A DNA stretch of 64,000 bases, from the NCBI RefSeq assembly GCF_009931435.1, contig NZ_CP043414.1. One strand, 5' to 3'. Positions 16,453 to 40,599 of this stretch are shown in pieces (positions within the stretch are counted from its first letter, which is position 1; each line of letters starts with the position of its first letter). A model generated the notes under the pieces. That model was not told the DNA's origin. It worked only from the letters and a program-made list of their open reading frames with translations, and made no database searches. Source of the DNA: Escherichia coli (GTDB lineage: Bacteria > Pseudomonadota > Gammaproteobacteria > Enterobacterales > Enterobacteriaceae). A program made the position numbers and the translations under genes.

Positions 16453-16527
16453 AGAGCCTCTCATTTAATCATTTTTGTTCAACTTGCTCTTGTGAATCAG
16501 ATTGTTGACAAAGTGCGCGTTGTTTAT

Positions 16528-16626
16528 GCCGGATGCGGCGTAAACGCCTTATCCGACCTACAAAAGCCTGCAAATTCAATATATTGCATGGACCATGTAG
16601 GCCTGATAAGCATAGCGCATCAGGCA
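16528..16626. repeat. Pair of REP (palindromic unit) elements in inverted orientation (BIME-like)
   Basis: gccggatgcggcgtaaacgccttatccgacctac and gtaggcctgataagcatagcgcatcaggca, at the junction between backbone and AT-rich island 2. Confidence 0.7.
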
Positions 16627-16641
16627 ATTTTACCTTTGTCA

Positions 16642-17220
16642 TCAGTCTCGAATGGATTCACTTTTGCCTTGATGAGGAACTTTTTCCATTTCACTATAAA
16701 ATTTGATTTGGGCATCATTTAAAGGAAAAAAGCCATCGCGAAGCTCGTAGCATCTTAAGCCCCAGAAGGCATCATCTTTCATAGCCTCGCTATCACATTG
16801 GGTAAATATAGCATCCATTGCATCGGATAAAATTTCATCATCTGTTAACAATTGTTTTTTCATCAATTCTGATTGTTTAAAAACCGCATGCATAAAAATA
16901 TTATTGAATATAACAAAATCATTTATCCCAGAATTGCAATACATCATCGTAAAATTTGCGCATTCGTCTATATCATACAAGTAATAAACTTTCTTATTTT
17001 TTACGCTAACAATAAAATAACCATCTAAATCATGACCAAATACAATGTACTCATCGGAGTCGAATACATATAATTCATCACAATAAAACGTCACCTCTTG
17101 ATTTTCATAGGGAATAAGAAGCGGCAATTTTATTTTTATTCCCTTAATTAAATTGGATGAAGATGAGTTTATTTTTTTAAAAACCTTATCAGGCTGTAAA
17201 TTAATTAGTTTTGTTAACAC
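16642..17220 (-). CDS. Hypothetical 192-aa protein, island 2 (last gene of cassette)
   Basis: ORF in AT-rich DNA, co-directional with three upstream small ORFs; acidic, Asp/Tyr/Phe-rich; no motif I recognise. Confidence 0.55.
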   Translation of the reverse strand: MLTKLINLQPDKVFKKINSSSSNLIKGIKIKLPLLIPYENQEVTFYCDELYVFDSDEYIVFGHDLDGYFIVSVKNKKVYYLYDIDECANFTMMYCNSGINDFVIFNNIFMHAVFKQSELMKKQLLTDDEILSDAMDAIFTQCDSEAMKDDAFWGLRCYELRDGFFPLNDAQIKFYSEMEKVPHQGKSESIRD

Positions 17221-17282
17221 AAGTCATCCTTTTATCGTAATTGGCAACTCACAACATTTCATTAAACTACTTCACCATAATA

Positions 17283-17747
17283 TCATTTTATTTTCAACCC
17301 AGGAGAAAATAAATAATTTAGATACATTTCATTCGAATTGGACAAACCCGGATAAATATCGCAACCAGGCTTACTCAATAAAAAATCCTTATCCAAAATC
17401 TTAAAGTCATGACGAATTAATACATTAATTAAGTCTGCAATCTCTGCACCTATATTCATCGAGCTTGTTATAACGTCATCCTTGAATATTATAAAAGCAT
17501 ATTGCCCAACAAGAGATATATAGATAAAGGCAATGCCTTTTTGCAAAACAACTTCTAATGAAAGACAGACATCATAATTTAACTCAGTGTTATCTCTAAT
17601 ATCAAATCGTGAACTAAACGCAGAAATTATTTCTTTATATTTGGATGAATTGTATCCTTCCATCACAAATGCAAAATTGGGGTTCGCCATATCAAGATAA
17701 GATGTCTTAATTGCCTGATTACACTCATTTTTAATGTCCATAACCAT
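17283..17747 (-). CDS. Hypothetical 154-aa protein, island 2
   Basis: ORF in AT-rich DNA; 62-bp gap to the downstream ORF. Confidence 0.55.
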   Translation of the reverse strand: MVMDIKNECNQAIKTSYLDMANPNFAFVMEGYNSSKYKEIISAFSSRFDIRDNTELNYDVCLSLEVVLQKGIAFIYISLVGQYAFIIFKDDVITSSMNIGAEIADLINVLIRHDFKILDKDFLLSKPGCDIYPGLSNSNEMYLNYLFSPGLKIK

Positions 17748-17845
17748 CTACAACATTCATCCTTATAATAAGACTTTCAAGTCTATAAAAACCATATATC
17801 CTTGCACAAGCTTATTAGCTATTCATATTTGCATATCTCATAAAC

Positions 17846-18205
17846 CTATTTATCCGTAAATTTAAAAGAGACTTTATTTTCCCTTTCATCACTTAAGGGA
17901 TAATCATCTCTTTTTGTATAGATAAAATCGTTTGTTTGGAGAATTAGTTCTTGTATGACAGTCTCGAGCCTTTCAGGGAGGAGCGATTCGATATCCTCAA
18001 GCTCACAACCATGATAAATTATATCTATTAATTCTTTATCACAACCTTTCCTCCGTAGAGTACGGGCAAAAAAAGGACAGAAAACAAGCAATTCAGATTC
18101 ATCTATGGTTACTGCTCCCCTTTCCAGCGAGTGTAAAGCCCCTAAAAGCAGAATAGCCATAAATTTATCTACATATTTATTTTCTATTGTGCAAACTAAT
18201 GACAT
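17846..18205 (-). CDS. Hypothetical 119-aa acidic protein, island 2
   Basis: ORF in AT-rich DNA; 50-bp gap after the upstream membrane-protein ORF. Confidence 0.5.
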   Translation of the reverse strand: MSLVCTIENKYVDKFMAILLLGALHSLERGAVTIDESELLVFCPFFARTLRRKGCDKELIDIIYHGCELEDIESLLPERLETVIQELILQTNDFIYTKRDDYPLSDERENKVSFKFTDK

Positions 18206-18256
18206 AAAAACCTCCCTTGCTTAATATTATAAATATTTTTAAATATATGTGGCATT

Positions 18257-18604
18257 TCATTTCCTTTTTGCATCAATTTTCTTTAGAAATAACACCGCCA
18301 TATACGATAGCATGAATGATAAAATCATTAAAATAACTCTCAATGGATGCGAACCGCCCCACGAAAACAATAAATATAATGTTGCAATATAAGATAGTGT
18401 GTGCGTGTACTTATTTGCTATAAATGGCGTCAGGAATACCACGGGAAGGAGAACAAAAAGCATATAAAAGCGGATAAATCCCAAACCAACTCCGTGACTT
18501 GACGGCCTGAAATATGACGTATATATCTCGCGACCGAGGTCATGTGCCATCACCATAATCATAACACCTGTAATCGCAATAATTATCTTTATTACATTCA
18601 TCAT
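18257..18604 (-). CDS. Hypothetical 115-aa small polytopic membrane protein, first gene of island 2 cassette
   Basis: Three to four hydrophobic helical stretches with a basic C-terminal tail (KKIDAKRK). Confidence 0.55.
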   Translation of the reverse strand: MMNVIKIIIAITGVMIMVMAHDLGREIYTSYFRPSSHGVGLGFIRFYMLFVLLPVVFLTPFIANKYTHTLSYIATLYLLFSWGGSHPLRVILMILSFMLSYMAVLFLKKIDAKRK

Positions 18605-18890
18605 TTGATTTCTTCAATATGCGTCCATTACCTGCACCGTGAATGCCTGGGCCAGACAAGCACAAGAGCGTTCATGGCAGGAAACCGAAACAAGCGAATA
18701 AAATCGCAATAGTGTTTTACCCCGCCAGCTACCAGCCACCCAATGAGGGGCCGGTTTTTTCCGGGCAAGTAAGTGACAGCGTATTGACGGTTCAAATGAG
18801 TTATCTATCCCTGAATTGACGCATACGGATAGTGTGACATTTGCAGCGACTGAGTTCTCATGTAAATGAGCGGAATAGTCTTTATAAAAT

Positions 18891-18920
18891 CCGAAAAAAA
18901 TCCCGACACATGGCCGGGAT
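18891..18920 (-). terminator. Rho-independent terminator downstream of ybhL
   Basis: Minus-strand hairpin atcccg-(9 nt)-cgggat followed by a U-run (plus-strand ccgaaaaaaa precedes the stem). Confidence 0.6.
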
Positions 18921-21492: not shown

Positions 21493-22482
21493 TTAGCCGC
21501 CAATGTACGATAAGTTTTGCGTAATACCGGTGTTGTTTTGATGCAGGAAATGGGTCTGTTTCTTCTCCCGCAGCGCCGCTGAAATACGCGCTTCCAGCGC
21601 CTGTTGCTGGGTATCGTCTTCCAGCAGATCGCGCAGGTTAACGCCGCCTTCACCGAACAGGCAGAGATGGAGTTTACCAATGGAGGAGACGCGCAGGCGG
21701 TTGCAAGTGGCGCAGAAGTCTTTTTCATACGGCATGATAAGGCCAATCTCTCCGGCGTAATCCGGATGACAAAAGACTTGCGCGGGACCGTCGCTGCGTT
21801 GACGTAATTGGTGGATCCAGCCGCGACGCAGTAACTCGTCACGCAGAACCTGACCAGAGATGTGATGCTTACGGAAGAGCTCGCTGCCCTCGCCCGTTTC
21901 CATCAGTTCGATGAAACGCAGCTGGATAGGGCGATGCTGGATCCAGTTCAGAAAGGTGTCGAGTTGGTGATGATTAACATCACGCATCAGCACGGTATTG
22001 ACTTTGACCTTCTCAAAACCGGCCTCAAATGCAGCATCGATCCCTGCCATGACCTGATTGAATTTATCCTGTCCGGTAATAGCATGAAACTGGCGAGCGT
22101 CGAGGCTATCGACACTCACGTTGATACCAGTAAGACCAGCATCACGCCAGTTCGCCACGTCGCGTTCCAGACGGTAACCATTGGTGGTGACCGCTATCTG
22201 GCGAATAGCGTCGTTTTCTCGCACAGCGGCGATGATATCGGTAAAGTCACGACGCAAAGACGGCTCTCCGCCCGTCAGACGGACTTTTTCGGTGCCCAGA
22301 CTGGCGAAGGCGCGCGTAACCCGGCGAATTTCATCGACGGTAAGAAAGCCTTTATTGGTGACGCCGCTCGGTTTGTAGCCATCCGGCAGGCAGTAGGTGC
22401 AACGGAAGTTACACACATCGGTAATCGACAGGCGCAAGTAGTAAAACTTACGCGCAAATGCATCAGTCAGTTGTGAAGCCAT
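21493..22482 (-). CDS. moaA: GTP 3',8-cyclase MoaA (radical SAM)
   Basis: 329 aa from [31 protein letters not shown] (CxxxCxxC radical-SAM cluster motif). The track ORF is extended upstream from a TTG. Confidence 0.95.
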
Positions 22483-22640
22483 GTACACCTTTCCAGATAC
22501 GGGAGGCGAAGTCATTTCTTCCTTCGCCCTGGTGGCAATCTTTGTAAGCATTGTCACGGCCAAAGCACCGTATCAGTTGACCCAGGTGCAGAGGCTAGAG
22601 TGTTTAGTGGTTAAGCCGATACTAGCGTGTAAACAGGATT
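22483..22640 (-). ncRNA. moaA 5-prime leader, expected site of the molybdenum cofactor (Moco) riboswitch
   Basis: Established knowledge that the E. coli moaA leader carries the Moco RNA motif; I have not verified the fold by eye, so coordinates are approximate. Confidence 0.4.
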
Positions 22641-23788: not shown

Positions 23789-23819
23789 GCGCCTGTGCCG
23801 GGGGCAGAAAAATACGACT

Positions 23820-23867
23820 GTGACTATGGCGTTTTAAATTATAGAAGGCCATAGTCACCTTTTTTTG
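23820..23867 (+). terminator. Strong rho-independent terminator after ybhK
   Basis: 11-bp stem gtgactatggc / gccatagtcac followed by cttttttt. Confidence 0.7.
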
Positions 23868-23963
23868 GCACAACCCCATTGTTAGCAGCTCATTTATCTT
23901 TCCACTTTCTGGAATTTAGTTTTGCTTCTTGATGTTTCTTGTGCCATGACTATTCTAATAATG

Positions 23964-34838: not shown

Positions 34839-34845
34839 GTCGATT

Positions 34846-36135
34846 ATGACAACGGACGATCTTGCCTTTGACCAACGCCATATCTGGCACCCATACACAT
34901 CCATGACCTCCCCGCTACCGGTTTATCCGGTGGCGAGCGCCGAAGGTTGCGAGCTGATTTTGTCTGACGGCAGACGCCTGATTGACGGTATGTCGTCCTG
35001 GTGGGCGGCAATCCACGGCTACAATCACCCGCAGCTCAATGCGGCAATGAAGTCGCAAATTGATGCCATGTCGCATGTGATGTTTGGCGGTATCACCCAT
35101 GCGCCCGCTGTCGAGCTGTGCCGCAAACTGGTGGCAATGACGCCGCAACCGCTGGAATGCGTTTTTCTCGCGGACTCCGGCTCCGTAGCGGTGGAAGTGG
35201 CGATGAAAATGGCGTTGCAGTACTGGCAAGCCAAAGGCGAAGCGCGCCAGCGTTTTCTGACCTTCCGCAATGGTTATCATGGCGATACCTTTGGCGCGAT
35301 GTCGGTGTGCGATCCAGACAACTCAATGCACAGCCTGTGGAAAGGCTATCTGCCAGAAAACCTGTTTGCTCCCGCGCCGCAAAGCCGCATGGATGGCGAA
35401 TGGGATGAACGCGATATGGTGGGCTTCGCACGTCTGATGGCGGCGCATCGTCATGAAATCGCGGCGGTGATCATTGAACCGATTGTTCAGGGCGCTGGCG
35501 GAATGCGCATGTACCATCCGGAATGGTTAAAACGAATCCGCAAAATGTGCGATCGTGAAGGTATCTTGCTGATTGCTGACGAGATAGCCACCGGTTTTGG
35601 TCGTACCGGCAAACTGTTTGCCTGCGAACATGCGGGGATCGCGCCGGACATTTTGTGCCTCGGTAAAGCCTTAACCGGCGGCACGATGACCCTTTCCGCC
35701 ACGCTCACCACGCGCGAGGTTGCGGAAACCATCAGTAACGGTGAAGCTGGCTGCTTTATGCATGGGCCTACTTTTATGGGCAATCCACTGGCCTGCGCGG
35801 CAGCAAACGCCAGCCTGGCCATTATCGAATCTGGCGACTGGCAGCAGCAGGTAGCGACTATTGAAGTACAACTGCGCGAGCAACTGGCTCCTGCCCGTGA
35901 CGCCGAAATGGTTGCCGATGTGCGCGTGCTGGGAGCGATTGGCGTGGTCGAAACCACTCGTCCGGTGAATATGGCAGCGCTGCAAAAATTCTTTGTCGAA
36001 CAGGATGTCTGGATACGACCATTTGGCAAACTGATTTACCTGATGCCGCCCTATATTATTAGCCCGCAACAGTTGCTGCGCCTGACCACAGCGGTTAACC
36101 GCGCGGTACAGGATGAAACATTTTTTTGCCAATAG
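34846..36135 (+). CDS. bioA: Adenosylmethionine-8-amino-7-oxononanoate aminotransferase BioA
   Basis: 429 aa from [20 protein letters not shown]. The track ORF is extended upstream through the operator region. Confidence 0.95.
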
Positions 36136-36193
36136 CGGGAAGTCAGCGTGAGGGTTTCTGGCTACACTTTCTGCAAACTAGAAAGGAGGGTTC

Positions 36194-36670
36194 ATGAAAC
36201 TCATCAGTAATGATTTACGCGATGGCGATAAGCTGCCGCATCGTCATGTCTTTAACGGCATGGGTTACGATGGCGATAATATTTCACCGCATCTGGCATG
36301 GGATGATGTTCCTGCGGGAACCAAAAGTTTTGTCGTCACCTGCTACGACCCGGATGCGCCAACCGGCTCCGGCTGGTGGCACTGGGTAGTTGTTAATTTA
36401 CCCGCTGATACCCGCGTATTACCGCAAGGGTTTGGATCTGGTCTGGTAGCAATGCCAGACGGCGTTTTGCAGACGCGTACCGACTTTGGTAAAACCGGGT
36501 ACGATGGTGCAGCGCCGCCGAAAGGCGAAACCCATCGCTACATTTTTACCGTTCACGCGCTGGATGTAGAACGTATTGATGTCGATGAAGGTGCCAGCGG
36601 CGCGATGGTCGGGTTTAACGTTCATTTCCACTCTCTGGCAAGCGCCTCGATTACTGCGATGTTTAGTTAA
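36194..36670 (+). CDS. ybhB: PEBP-family (kinase inhibitor homolog) protein YbhB
   Basis: 158-aa ORF; synteny. Confidence 0.85.
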   Translation: MKLISNDLRDGDKLPHRHVFNGMGYDGDNISPHLAWDDVPAGTKSFVVTCYDPDAPTGSGWWHWVVVNLPADTRVLPQGFGSGLVAMPDGVLQTRTDFGKTGYDGAAPPKGETHRYIFTVHALDVERIDVDEGASGAMVGFNVHFHSLASASITAMFS

Positions 36671-36756
36671 TCACTCTGCCAGATGGCGCAATGCCATCTG
36701 GTATCACTTAAAGGTATTAAAAACAACTTTTTGTCTTTTTACCTTCCCGTTTCGCT

Positions 36757-36777
36757 CAAGTTAGTATAAAAAAGCAG
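36757..36777. other. Unoccupied phage lambda attachment site (attB core region)
   Basis: caagttagtataaaaaagcag is the reverse complement of ctgcttttttatactaacttg, between ybhB and ybhC; no prophage is present. Confidence 0.8.
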
Positions 36778-36821
36778 GCTTCAACGGATTCATTTTTCTA
36801 TTTCATAGCCCGGAGCAACCT

Positions 36822-38105
36822 GTGAACACATTTTCAGTTTCCCGTCTGGCGCTGGCATTGGCTTTTGGCGTGACGCTGACCGCCTGTAGCTCAACACCGC
36901 CCGATCAACGTCCTTCTGATCAAACCGCGCCTGGTACCTCTTCTCGCCCGATTCTGTCGGCAAAAGAAGCGCAGAATTTCGATGCTCAACACTATTTTGC
37001 GTCCCTGACGCCAGGTGCTGCAGCGTGGAATCCTTCCCCGATTACTCTGCCTGCACAACCTGACTTTGTTGTCGGTCCGGCGGGTACTCCGGGTGTAACG
37101 CATACCACGATTCAGGCGGCGGTAGATGCGGCAATTATCAAGCGTACCAATAAGCGCCAGTATATTGCCGTGATGCCTGGTGAATATCAGGGAACGGTGT
37201 ATGTCCCTGCCGCTCCGGGTGGAATTACCGTTTATGGTACAGGTGAAAAACCGATTGATGTGAAGATTGGGCTTTCCCTTGATGGGGGCATGAGCCCTGC
37301 CGACTGGCGTCACGATGTCAATCCGCGCGGCAAATACATGCCCGGTAAACCGGCATGGTATATGTACGATAGCTGCCAGAGCAAACGCAGCGACAGTATC
37401 GGCGTTCTCTGCTCTGCGGTCTTCTGGTCACAAAACAATGGCCTGCAACTGCAAAACCTGACCATCGAAAACACGCTGGGTGATAGCGTAGATGCGGGTA
37501 ACCATCCGGCGGTGGCACTGCGTACTGATGGCGATAAAGTGCAGATCAACAACGTCAACATTCTCGGTCGTCAGAATACCTTCTTTGTGACCAACAGCGG
37601 TGTACAGAACCGTCTGGAAACCAATCGTCAACCACGTACGCTGGTGACGAATAGCTATATTGAAGGGGATGTGGATATCGTTTCTGGTCGCGGCGCAGTG
37701 GTGTTCGATAATACCGAATTCCGCGTGGTGAACTCCCGTACCCAGCAAGAAGCGTATGTGTTTGCACCGGCTACGCTGTCTAACATCTATTACGGTTTCC
37801 TCGCCGTAAACAGCCGCTTCAATGCTTCCGGTGATGGCGTGGCGCAACTGGGCCGCTCGCTGGATGTTGATGCCAATACCAACGGTCAGGTGGTGATCCG
37901 TGATAGCGCCATCAACGAAGGTTTTAACACGGCTAAACCGTGGGCCGATGCGGTGATTTCCAATCGTCCGTTTGCGGGTAATACTGGCAACGTTGATGAT
38001 AACGACGAAGTACAGCGTAATCTGAATGACACTAACTACAACCGCATGTGGGAATACAATAACCGCGGCGTGGGTAGCAAAGTGGTTGCAGAGGCGAAGA
38101 AGTAA
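36822..38105 (+). CDS. ybhC: Putative pectinesterase-family outer membrane lipoprotein YbhC
   Basis: 427 aa with a lipoprotein signal peptide (..LTACSS). Confidence 0.85.
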   Translation: MNTFSVSRLALALAFGVTLTACSSTPPDQRPSDQTAPGTSSRPILSAKEAQNFDAQHYFASLTPGAAAWNPSPITLPAQPDFVVGPAGTPGVTHTTIQAAVDAAIIKRTNKRQYIAVMPGEYQGTVYVPAAPGGITVYGTGEKPIDVKIGLSLDGGMSPADWRHDVNPRGKYMPGKPAWYMYDSCQSKRSDSIGVLCSAVFWSQNNGLQLQNLTIENTLGDSVDAGNHPAVALRTDGDKVQINNVNILGRQNTFFVTNSGVQNRLETNRQPRTLVTNSYIEGDVDIVSGRGAVVFDNTEFRVVNSRTQQEAYVFAPATLSNIYYGFLAVNSRFNASGDGVAQLGRSLDVDANTNGQVVIRDSAINEGFNTAKPWADAVISNRPFAGNTGNVDDNDEVQRNLNDTNYNRMWEYNNRGVGSKVVAEAKK

Positions 38106-38120
38106 AAGCGATTAACTTTT

Positions 38121-38320
<200 letters not shown>

Positions 38321-38337
38321 CATTCACATGGCGCTTT

Positions 38338-40599
38338 TTACATCTGACGGTTTTTATTGAAGTTAATCAAACTACCCGCCTTGATAATCTCGCGCTCTTC
38401 AGCAGTCAGACTTTCCATATAGAGCGTAATCTCTGTTACCGGCGCATCTTCATGGATCACATAACCTTTAAACGTCGTCCCCGGATTATCCAGCGCCGCT
38501 TTAATGCCAGGGATGTAAATGTAATCGCCCACTTCAAAGTTCGGTGCTTCCGCCATTTGCAGCGGTAACATCCCCCAGTTGATGACGTTAGAACGGTAGC
38601 GTTTAGTCGCGTATTCCTCGGCAATATTCGCCAGACCGCCAATCACACGCTGGCAACTCGCCGCCTGCTCACGCGCAGAACCATCGCCTGGTTTCACCGC
38701 ATAGACCATGCTGCCAATTTCAGTTTGCAGCGGATCAATATGCTCCTGACCAGCAATCTGCTTAATGCGCGCAAACACCTCTGTCAGCTCGCTGACATTG
38801 CCCGCCAGACGCTGATTTTCCAGCTCGGCAGTCGCTTTACTTCTGCCAACATAGCCCGGATCACGGCGTAACAGGGTAAACTCCGCCAAACCAATCGGAT
38901 TTGAACGATAAGAAGAGGTTTCACCGGAAGGAATCAATTCGTCGGTGGTGGTCACTTCGTCGAGGATCTTCGAGCACACTTTGAGGACGATATTGTCAGT
39001 CAGCGCCCCCAATTCCGGCCAGTCTTTGATGTTCGGTCCGTAGATCAGCGATTGCTGGGTCGCCCCTTTCACAAAGCCCTGATAGACGCGATTTTTATAC
39101 GGCGTGACATCGAAGGCATACTCCGGCACGATGTCCCAGCAGTCCAATTCACTTGCAGAGGTTAAATAACCACCGTTTGCGGCTGTTGCAGCGATAGAAC
39201 GGGCATCCATCAACGCCACCGCTGACATCTGACCGTTGGCTGGCTTAGAGCCTTCGCGATTCGGGAAGTTACGCGTGGTGTGGCGAATACTCAAACCGTT
39301 GTTGATTGGCGTGTCGCCCGCGCCAAAGCATGGGCCGCAGAACGCGGTTCTGATGATTGCGCCTGCGCCAATCAAATCTGCTACCACGCCTTTTTTGGCT
39401 AAATCCATAAACACCGGCTGTGATGATGGATAAACCGCCAGCGAGAAGGTGTCATTGCCACAGGATTGACCGCGCAGCGCATTAGCTGCAGCGATAACGT
39501 TTTCATAGTTACCGCCAGAACAGCCCGCGATAATCCCCTGCTGCACTTTCAGGCGACCATTTTCGACTTTATCCAGCAATGAGAGTTTGGCTTTCCCGTG
39601 CGCCACGCGCTCGGACTCAATTTCAATCTCACGCAGAATGTCAGTCAGGTTCTGGTTCAGCATGTCGATTTCATACACGTTGCTCGGGTGGAACGGCAGC
39701 GCAATCATTGGTTTGATGGCACTCAAATCAACGCTGATGCAGCCATCGTAGTACGCCATCGGTTGAGGGTTAAGCTGACAATAATCCTGGCCGCGACCGT
39801 GCAGCGCCAGCCAGTTATGGACTTCTTCATCAGTTTGCCAGACAGAACTTAAACAGGTCGTTTCAGTGGTCATAACGTCAACGCTGTTACGGAAATCGGT
39901 AGAGAGCGCCGCAACACCGGGACCTACGAATTCCATCACTTTGTTTTTGACGTAGCCGTTTTTGAACACGGCACCAATGATAGCCAGCGCCACATCCTGC
40001 GGCCCCACATACGGCGCAGGTTTTCCGGTCAAATGCACCGCAACAACTCCCGGATAGTCGATATCCCAGGTGTCATTAAGCAGCTGTTTTACCAACTCAC
40101 CGCCACCCTCACCGACTGCCATTGTCCCTAATGCACCGTAACGGGTGTGGCTGTCTGACCCGAGGATCATTTTGCCGCCTCCTGCCATCATCTCACGCAT
40201 ATATTGATGGATGACCGCAATATGTGGAGGCACAAAAATACCGCCATAACGCTGCGCTGCCGATAAACCAAAAACATGGTCATCACCGTTAATGGTGCCG
40301 CCGACGGCGCAGAGTGAGTTATGGCAGTTGGTCAGCACATACGGCAGCGGGAAACGTTCCATACCGGACGCTTTAGCGGTCTGTACAATACCAACAAAGG
40401 TAATATCGTGAGAGGCTAATGAATCAAACTTAATTTTAAGTTTGTCCATATTTCCGGACGTATTATGAGAAGAGAGAATAGACCAGGCAATAGTGCCTTT
40501 TTTGGCTTCTTCTTTTTTAATTTCGCCGCTGAAATGTTCTTCGGCAATTATTTCGTTATTACTGGCGAGAAACACGCCTTTTTCAGATAACTTGATCAT
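38338..40599 (-). CDS. ybhJ: Aconitase-family protein YbhJ
   Basis: 753 aa from [12 protein letters not shown]...; Cys residues in aconitase-like context. The track ORF starts 8 codons upstream. Confidence 0.85.

Follow-up and report, generated by a model that had tools for sequence, protein, structure and literature searches.

The 64,000-nucleotide stretch of an Escherichia coli chromosome analysed here (the window) carries at positions 36,757–36,777, on the minus strand, what is almost certainly the native, vacant attB (BOB') of phage lambda and of other lambdoid elements with lambda-type integrase specificity. The common core, the complete 21-bp sequence, the gal–bio position, the vacancy and the natural use of the identical sequence were all found at the sequence level. 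The site is an already known textbook feature in its commonest state, that of the majority of genomes, and the result matters little beyond annotation.

Sequence, position and neighbours of the site

The canonical 21-bp attB (B-O-B'), CTGCTTTTTTATACTAACTTG (5' to 3'), was matched exactly; the plus strand at these coordinates reads ...CGCTCAAGTTAGTATAAAAAAGCAGGCTTCAACGG..., and its reverse complement holds the 21-mer. The 15-bp core common to attB and attP, GCTTTTTTATACTAA, lies at 36,761–36,775 (minus strand), also as an exact match. In lysogens, the core is the segment present at both prophage ends, and the staggered strand exchanges by Int take place at the 7-bp overlap TTTATAC, which we take to be positions 36,764–36,770 (minus strand), counted within the core by the standard lambda core numbering. 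The B and B' core-type Int half-sites were both present around this overlap, B toward ybhC (the gal side) and B' toward ybhB (the bio side). The initial annotation, which had reported an intact core in reverse complement at 36,757–36,777 and called for an exact-match search for any mismatch in it, was correct in coordinates, strand and sequence: zero mismatches were found.

Two genes flank the site on the plus strand. On the bio side, ybhB (36,194–36,670), encoding a Raf-kinase-inhibitor-like protein, was identified with 344 bits by the NCBIfam kinase inhibitor equivalog; 86 nt separate the end of its stop codon from attB. On the gal side, ybhC (36,822–38,105), encoding an outer-membrane lipoprotein (pectinesterase-like/acyl-CoA thioesterase), was identified by NCBIfam PRK10531 (729 bits); it starts with GTG, 44 nt past attB. 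The earlier placement of the site between ybhB and ybhC was thus confirmed by equivalog models for both neighbours, and this is where attB is located in the literature (PMC3467070), which defines attB as 21 bp and attP as 241 bp (PMC10863862). Upstream of ybhB lies bioA (34,846–36,135, plus strand), an open reading frame with a 10-residue stretch at residue 38 (letters not shown) and synteny with K-12 and strain 2017-02-2CC; its position confirms the bio side of the classical gal–attB–bio arrangement. The genes bioBFCD, bioA and ybhB are all on one side of attB, and ybhC through gal on the other.

In K-12 MG1655, the 21-mer was found at about 807,326–807,346, between ybhC (b0772, 805,998–807,281) and ybhB (b0773, 807,433–807,909); the window runs in the opposite orientation, its plus strand matching the MG1655 minus strand. 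BLAST of the window against about 68 kb of MG1655 showed colinearity without insertion over 28,558–64,000, with the gene order uvrB, bio, ybhB, ybhC, mod, gal, aroG, nadA and a tRNA-Lys/Val cluster at the right end. The window, MG1655 and 2017-02-2CC, the complete genome closest to the window, were aligned over 220 bp that run from the end of ybhB across the 151-bp spacer into the start of ybhC, and all three were 100% identical; the continuity with K-12 that the initial annotation had asked to be checked on the flanks holds. Compared with the lambda attB of K-12 (about 17 min), the 21 bp, the 220 bp around them, the neighbours, the gal/bio orientation and the spacing are the same; no difference was found at the site, although the surrounding genes are about 4.5% divergent.

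In the window, the 21-mer was unique even at up to three mismatches (pattern search), and the same tolerance gave 0 matches across 100 dinucleotide-preserving shuffles, so a chance match is not expected. The core was unique at up to two mismatches; with a single copy, the window holds no attL/attR pair. That the match arose by chance, or is an AT-rich 'pseudo-att' motif and not a true attachment site, is vanishingly improbable. Such a reading could point to the 15-mer, for which 17 of 100 shuffles gave one or more matches at up to two mismatches, and to exact 21-mers in unrelated organisms (Ferroplasma and a Bacillales MAG). Against it stand the empty result of the 21-mer shuffles, the orthologous position within 220 bp identical to K-12, and the thousands of prophage junctions that map exactly to the site (described below); synteny and junction mapping together refute it.

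The matches in unrelated organisms came from a scan of species representatives, in which the exact 21-mer was found only in Ferroplasma acidarmanus (three copies) and a Bacillales MAG, with unrelated flanks; no Enterobacteriaceae were returned, and the scan is uninformative on sister species. Presumably, the E. coli species representative has attB occupied or variant. The exact lambda attB 23-mer GCCTGCTTTTTTATACTAACTTG has three copies in the archaeon Ferroplasma acidarmanus Fer1, each within one and the same 28-mer and between unrelated flanks, and a single copy in the Bacillales MAG. Within the examined loci, the matches lie at 1957–1977 and 4396–4416; 4724–4744; and 3185–3205. They could be an AT-rich coincidence, a shared promoter-like motif or an artefact.

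Relatives of the site outside its native place differ from it in defined ways. The Gateway sites attB1 and attB2 presumably have the same BOB' origin, with the native ...AAAAAGCAGGCT segment recognisable in them. Pseudo-attB sites for evolved Int variants have the same BOB' architecture of 21–25 bp, and ...AAAAAGCAGGCT is again recognisable (PMC10863862). Both kinds have altered overlap or core bases and stand outside the native chromosomal context, whereas the site in the window is wild type. Other lambdoid sites of E. coli (such as icd for phage 21/e14, and the tmRNA gene) are likewise tyrosine-integrase targets and island hotspots in Escherichia (PMC9580842), but they have a different sequence and integrase specificity and lie inside genes; none is within the window.

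Since the identity to the experimentally defined K-12 site extends well beyond the 21 bp, the attB of the window is presumably a competent Int/IHF target, able to accept a prophage. It would act as a passive, naked DNA target, captured by a tetramer of Int that has assembled, together with IHF, on supercoiled attP, and the Int catalytic domains would bind the imperfectly inverted B and B' half-sites. Exchange of the first strand pair, at the B/C edge of the overlap, would give a Holliday junction, and the second exchange, at B'/C', would resolve it to attL and attR with the phage inserted. Int capture, ordered strand exchange and the Holliday junction are described for BOB' recombination (PMC4880445), and attP carries arm-type Int sites as well as IHF, Xis and Fis sites (PMC10863862). 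Judged from the sequence, the site should be available for lysogeny or for single-copy integration of the lambda-Int/CRIM type.

Vacant and occupied states among E. coli genomes

A 601-bp probe centred on attB matched 5,424 of 5,426 complete E. coli genomes. The junction was contiguous in 3,491 of the 5,424 (about 64%) and split in about 1,933 (36%). In the split genomes, the half-matches ended at query positions 308/309 and 291, which correspond to window positions 36,757–36,775, i.e., the core. Other probes gave the same division, with 3,493 contiguous genomes for a 2-kb probe and 3,487 for a 51-bp probe, and over the 51-bp probe, identity was 100% in 37 of 38 contiguous genomes sampled at even spacing. 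These population figures (about 64% vacant, about 36% occupied, the vacant site near-invariant) are useful background and not a discovery.

Strains of known state were split or contiguous as follows. Among the known lysogens, which served as positive controls, BLR(DE3) and EDL933 were both split at attB; in BLR(DE3), T7 RNA polymerase, lacI and an int fragment abut ybhC. O157 Sakai was split by 'prophage Sp3, lambda-like phage', with an int pseudogene adjoining ybhC and nleD adjoining ybhB, and PG20180059 and R32_14_1F were split by lambda-like prophages with J, lom and tail-fibre genes adjoining ybhB. K-12 W3110, DH5alpha and Nissle were contiguous, as is the window. In the junction alignment, the occupied genomes read phage P' arm, core and host on the ybhC side, and host, core and phage P arm on the ybhB side. 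The attL/attR junctions of DE3 in BLR(DE3), Sp3 in Sakai and CP-933K in EDL933 thus have the core and the host half-sites in common with the window, but they have a P or P' arm on one side of the core and a prophage of 15–50 kb between ybhB and ybhC; the window has host sequence on both sides of attB, without P or P' arm.

There is no prophage at the gal–bio attB of the source strain. The initial annotation had called the site unoccupied and the strain free of a lambdoid prophage at the gal–bio site; the first statement agrees with the continuous host DNA on both sides, where occupied genomes switch to a P or P' arm at the core, and the second is borne out for the attB locus. The strain thus has no lambda, Sp3 or CP-933K-type prophage at gal–bio, nor the effector cargo of such prophages there, and its assembly runs unbroken through a locus where assemblies often break. 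Natural use of the site was seen in the genomes broken precisely at the core, among them carriers of DE3, Sp3 and lambda-like prophages; this evidence concerns the identical sequence in other strains and not the source strain.

Precise excision by Int and Xis regenerates attB exactly, and it leaves the same sequence as a site that was empty from the start, so the site cannot be claimed as never occupied. A recent curing of a former prophage is nevertheless an unlikely history. The share of occupied E. coli genomes (about 36%) would favour it, as would the occupied attB of R32_14_1F, a strain that shares the rare ybhK–uvrB island and has a backbone 98.7% identical to that of the window; against it, the two nearest relatives at the locus, 2017-02-2CC and RMDEC465, are both unoccupied.

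Among the island sites of Escherichia, the ybhC/ybhB lambda locus is a major one (PMC9580842). The cargo next to ybhB, at the attR end, differs among the prophages that occupy it: a sensor diguanylate cyclase in R32_14_1F (33,628–34,959 of the locus), a defence-like pair of an AAA ATPase and an HNH endonuclease in PG20180059 (5060–7524 of the locus) and the type III effector NleD in Sakai (1–294 of the locus).

Sequence conservation around attB and expression of ybhC

The site lies in an unusually uniform part of the locus. Between the window and K-12, 313 of 6,999 positions around the locus differ (4.5%), and the longest run free of differences, 329 bp at 36,567–36,895, has the spacer at its centre; the next in length spans the bioA/bioB operator. 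We aligned nine E. coli genomes that differ by up to 4.9% and counted variable sites per 100-bp bin. Most bins had 6–16 variable sites, but the three bins of 36,700–36,999 had 1, 2 and 3. An invariant tract at 36,696–36,895, which takes in attB, the 44-nt ybhC leader with its ribosome-binding site and the first ~25 codons of ybhC, had a single variable column across its 200 bp in the nine genomes, where nearby sequence has about 9 per 100 bp. This trough in diversity is about as deep as that of the bio operator at 34,700–34,899.

Between the end of the ybhB hairpin and about codon 25 of ybhC, the sole change was in RMDEC465, where the T6/A6 run of the core is 1 bp shorter; this may reflect a homopolymer error in the assembly. 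A genuine loss would displace B with respect to the overlap and probably inactivate the site. The loss is at about 2511 in the RMDEC465 locus, and just beyond ybhC that strain carries a group II intron reverse transcriptase, ltrA (3993–5020 in its locus).

Directly after ybhB, a stable 11-bp stem-loop was found at 36,677–36,703 on the plus strand (RNA fold z-score −6.06), with a perfect 9-nt inverted repeat. The only two spacer substitutions among the nine genomes fall within this hairpin. It is likely a transcript end or a stabiliser for the bioA–ybhB message; no U-tract follows it. One terminator-like match, at 36,524–36,539, lies inside ybhB at chance level and was dismissed.

These features raise the possibility, on balance a doubtful one, that attB is conserved mainly as part of a host element which phages exploit, be it a promoter or leader of ybhC or the terminus of the bioA–ybhB transcript. 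This would complement, and does not exclude, its being the native attB. The depth of the 200-bp invariant tract (36,696–36,895), similar to that of the bio operator trough, speaks for such a role, as do the identity of the 51-mer in about 97% of the sampled unoccupied genomes and the distance of just 44 nt between attB and the start of ybhC. However, a promoter scan found no sigma-70-like promoter in 36,500–36,950 and an Rfam scan found no family in the ybhB–ybhC spacer; the invariant tract also covers synonymous sites of ybhC, which a promoter does not explain. The exact 21-mer was absent from species representatives of other Enterobacteriaceae, which argues against deep conservation, although that scan says little on sister species.

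Expression data from another strain bear on the same point. In strain 83972, insertion of a 12.5-kb cassette next to attB coincided with lowered expression of ybhC, the most down-regulated gene, with log2 fold changes of −3.4, −3.0 and −1.6, and the cassette strain had an H2O2 sensitivity resembling that of a ybhC deletion (PMC12263705). The authors leave a position effect undiscussed and do not attribute the change to position, and LsrR was introduced simultaneously (PMC12263705). The hypothesis that ybhC depends on transcription crossing attB is compatible with these data. We tentatively propose, as a rather improbable idea, that the spacer is an invariant regulatory or leader element for ybhC and that a prophage in attB would sever upstream transcription and lower ybhC expression. 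If so, occupied strains (about 36% of E. coli) might pay a cost in peroxide tolerance, vacancy in the source strain would preserve native ybhC expression, and the classical 'neutral' lambda site would not be neutral for the host.

Accessory blocks and the surrounding chromosome

The window contains three AT-rich blocks that are absent from K-12, at 1462–5756, 16,455–18,892 and 23,789–28,557. The initial annotation had concluded from the empty attB that the accessory islands are not phage-borne. Other phages and elements use many other sites, so an empty attB says nothing on the islands and the argument does not follow; the conclusion itself agrees with separate tests. No integrase or phage structural gene was found in the three blocks, and their PHROG matches were solely to families of unknown function, matching the SopA-like proteins. 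Among 50,697 phage records, BLASTN found nothing similar to the blocks at 1462–5756 and 23,789–28,557, and in the block at 16,455–18,892 only a dispersed repeat of ~130 bp (16,497–16,652) was matched. Direct repeats bracketing the blocks were not found, only short chance pairs, and PADLOC gave no defence-system match among the island proteins. The matches of the repeat were to scattered phage records, one of them within a region annotated as 'transduced bio-locus' in Escherichia phage DN1, which is a natural specialised transducer of the lambda-bio type; some entries of the phage collection are evidently host DNA.

The block at 1462–5756 replaces ybiA and is the espX2 locus, which is also found in O157 Sakai at the same backbone position. 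It contains an espX2-type SopA-like gene (1650–3662, minus strand, 670 aa), the size and rhlE–dinG position of which are those of Sakai ECs_0876, and a 561-aa open reading frame without family match (3967–5652, plus strand), which Sakai appears to lack. The block at 16,455–18,892 (2.4 kb) replaces ybhM and has several small open reading frames without family match, as well as a gene for a SUKH-4 immunity-like protein (16,642–17,220, minus strand). In relatives, the ybhM position is taken instead by extra Bax-inhibitor paralogues and a DUF3969 gene.

The third block, at 23,789–28,557, lies between ybhK/yvcK and uvrB and has a GC content of about 0.30. It encodes a protein of 765 aa that combines pentapeptide repeats with a SopA-like part (23,964–26,261, minus strand) and, divergently, a 550-aa open reading frame without family match (26,745–28,397, plus strand). 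SopA-like proteins are related to type III secretion effectors that are HECT-type E3 enzymes. The two SopA-like proteins of the window share 22% identity over 382 aa (E = 8e-23); their partner open reading frames of ~550 aa were considered as paralogues, and no relation was detectable (E = 0.046).

This third block is rare: of the 5,426 complete E. coli genomes, 24 have it, and in each of them it adjoins uvrB. Eighteen of the 24 copies are at least 99% identical (best about 99.9%), and in one carrier the flanking backbone is just about 98.7% identical. A recombination boundary between uvrB and attB, suspected because carriers of the island failed to rank high for the attB probe, was rejected; the attB of R32_14_1F is occupied, which cuts its match at 36,775.

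Across nearly the whole window, the backbone is 94.8–96.6% identical to MG1655. At the bioA–ybhC locus (34,800–38,100), the window differs by 3.7–4.6% from six of the eight genomes compared, and its nearest relatives there, 2017-02-2CC (Viet Nam) and RMDEC465 (Thailand), differ by about 1.7%. This pattern of distances places the source in an outlying E. coli lineage unrepresented among complete RefSeq genomes.

Beyond ybhC, the spacer to ybhJ (38,106–39,980) is highly variable among strains, and the alignment fails beyond 38,100. A match to the REP-derived naRNA4 was found at 38,174–38,244 (71.9 bits). Strain 2017-02-2CC lacks window positions 38,108–39,980, so its ybhJ is truncated; the ybhJ of the window is intact (761 aa). 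A molybdenum-cofactor riboswitch (103 bits) lies at 22,470–22,614, upstream of moaA, where it is expected, and the tRNA-Lys/Val genes at 62.3–63.4 kb are interspersed with four RtT elements.
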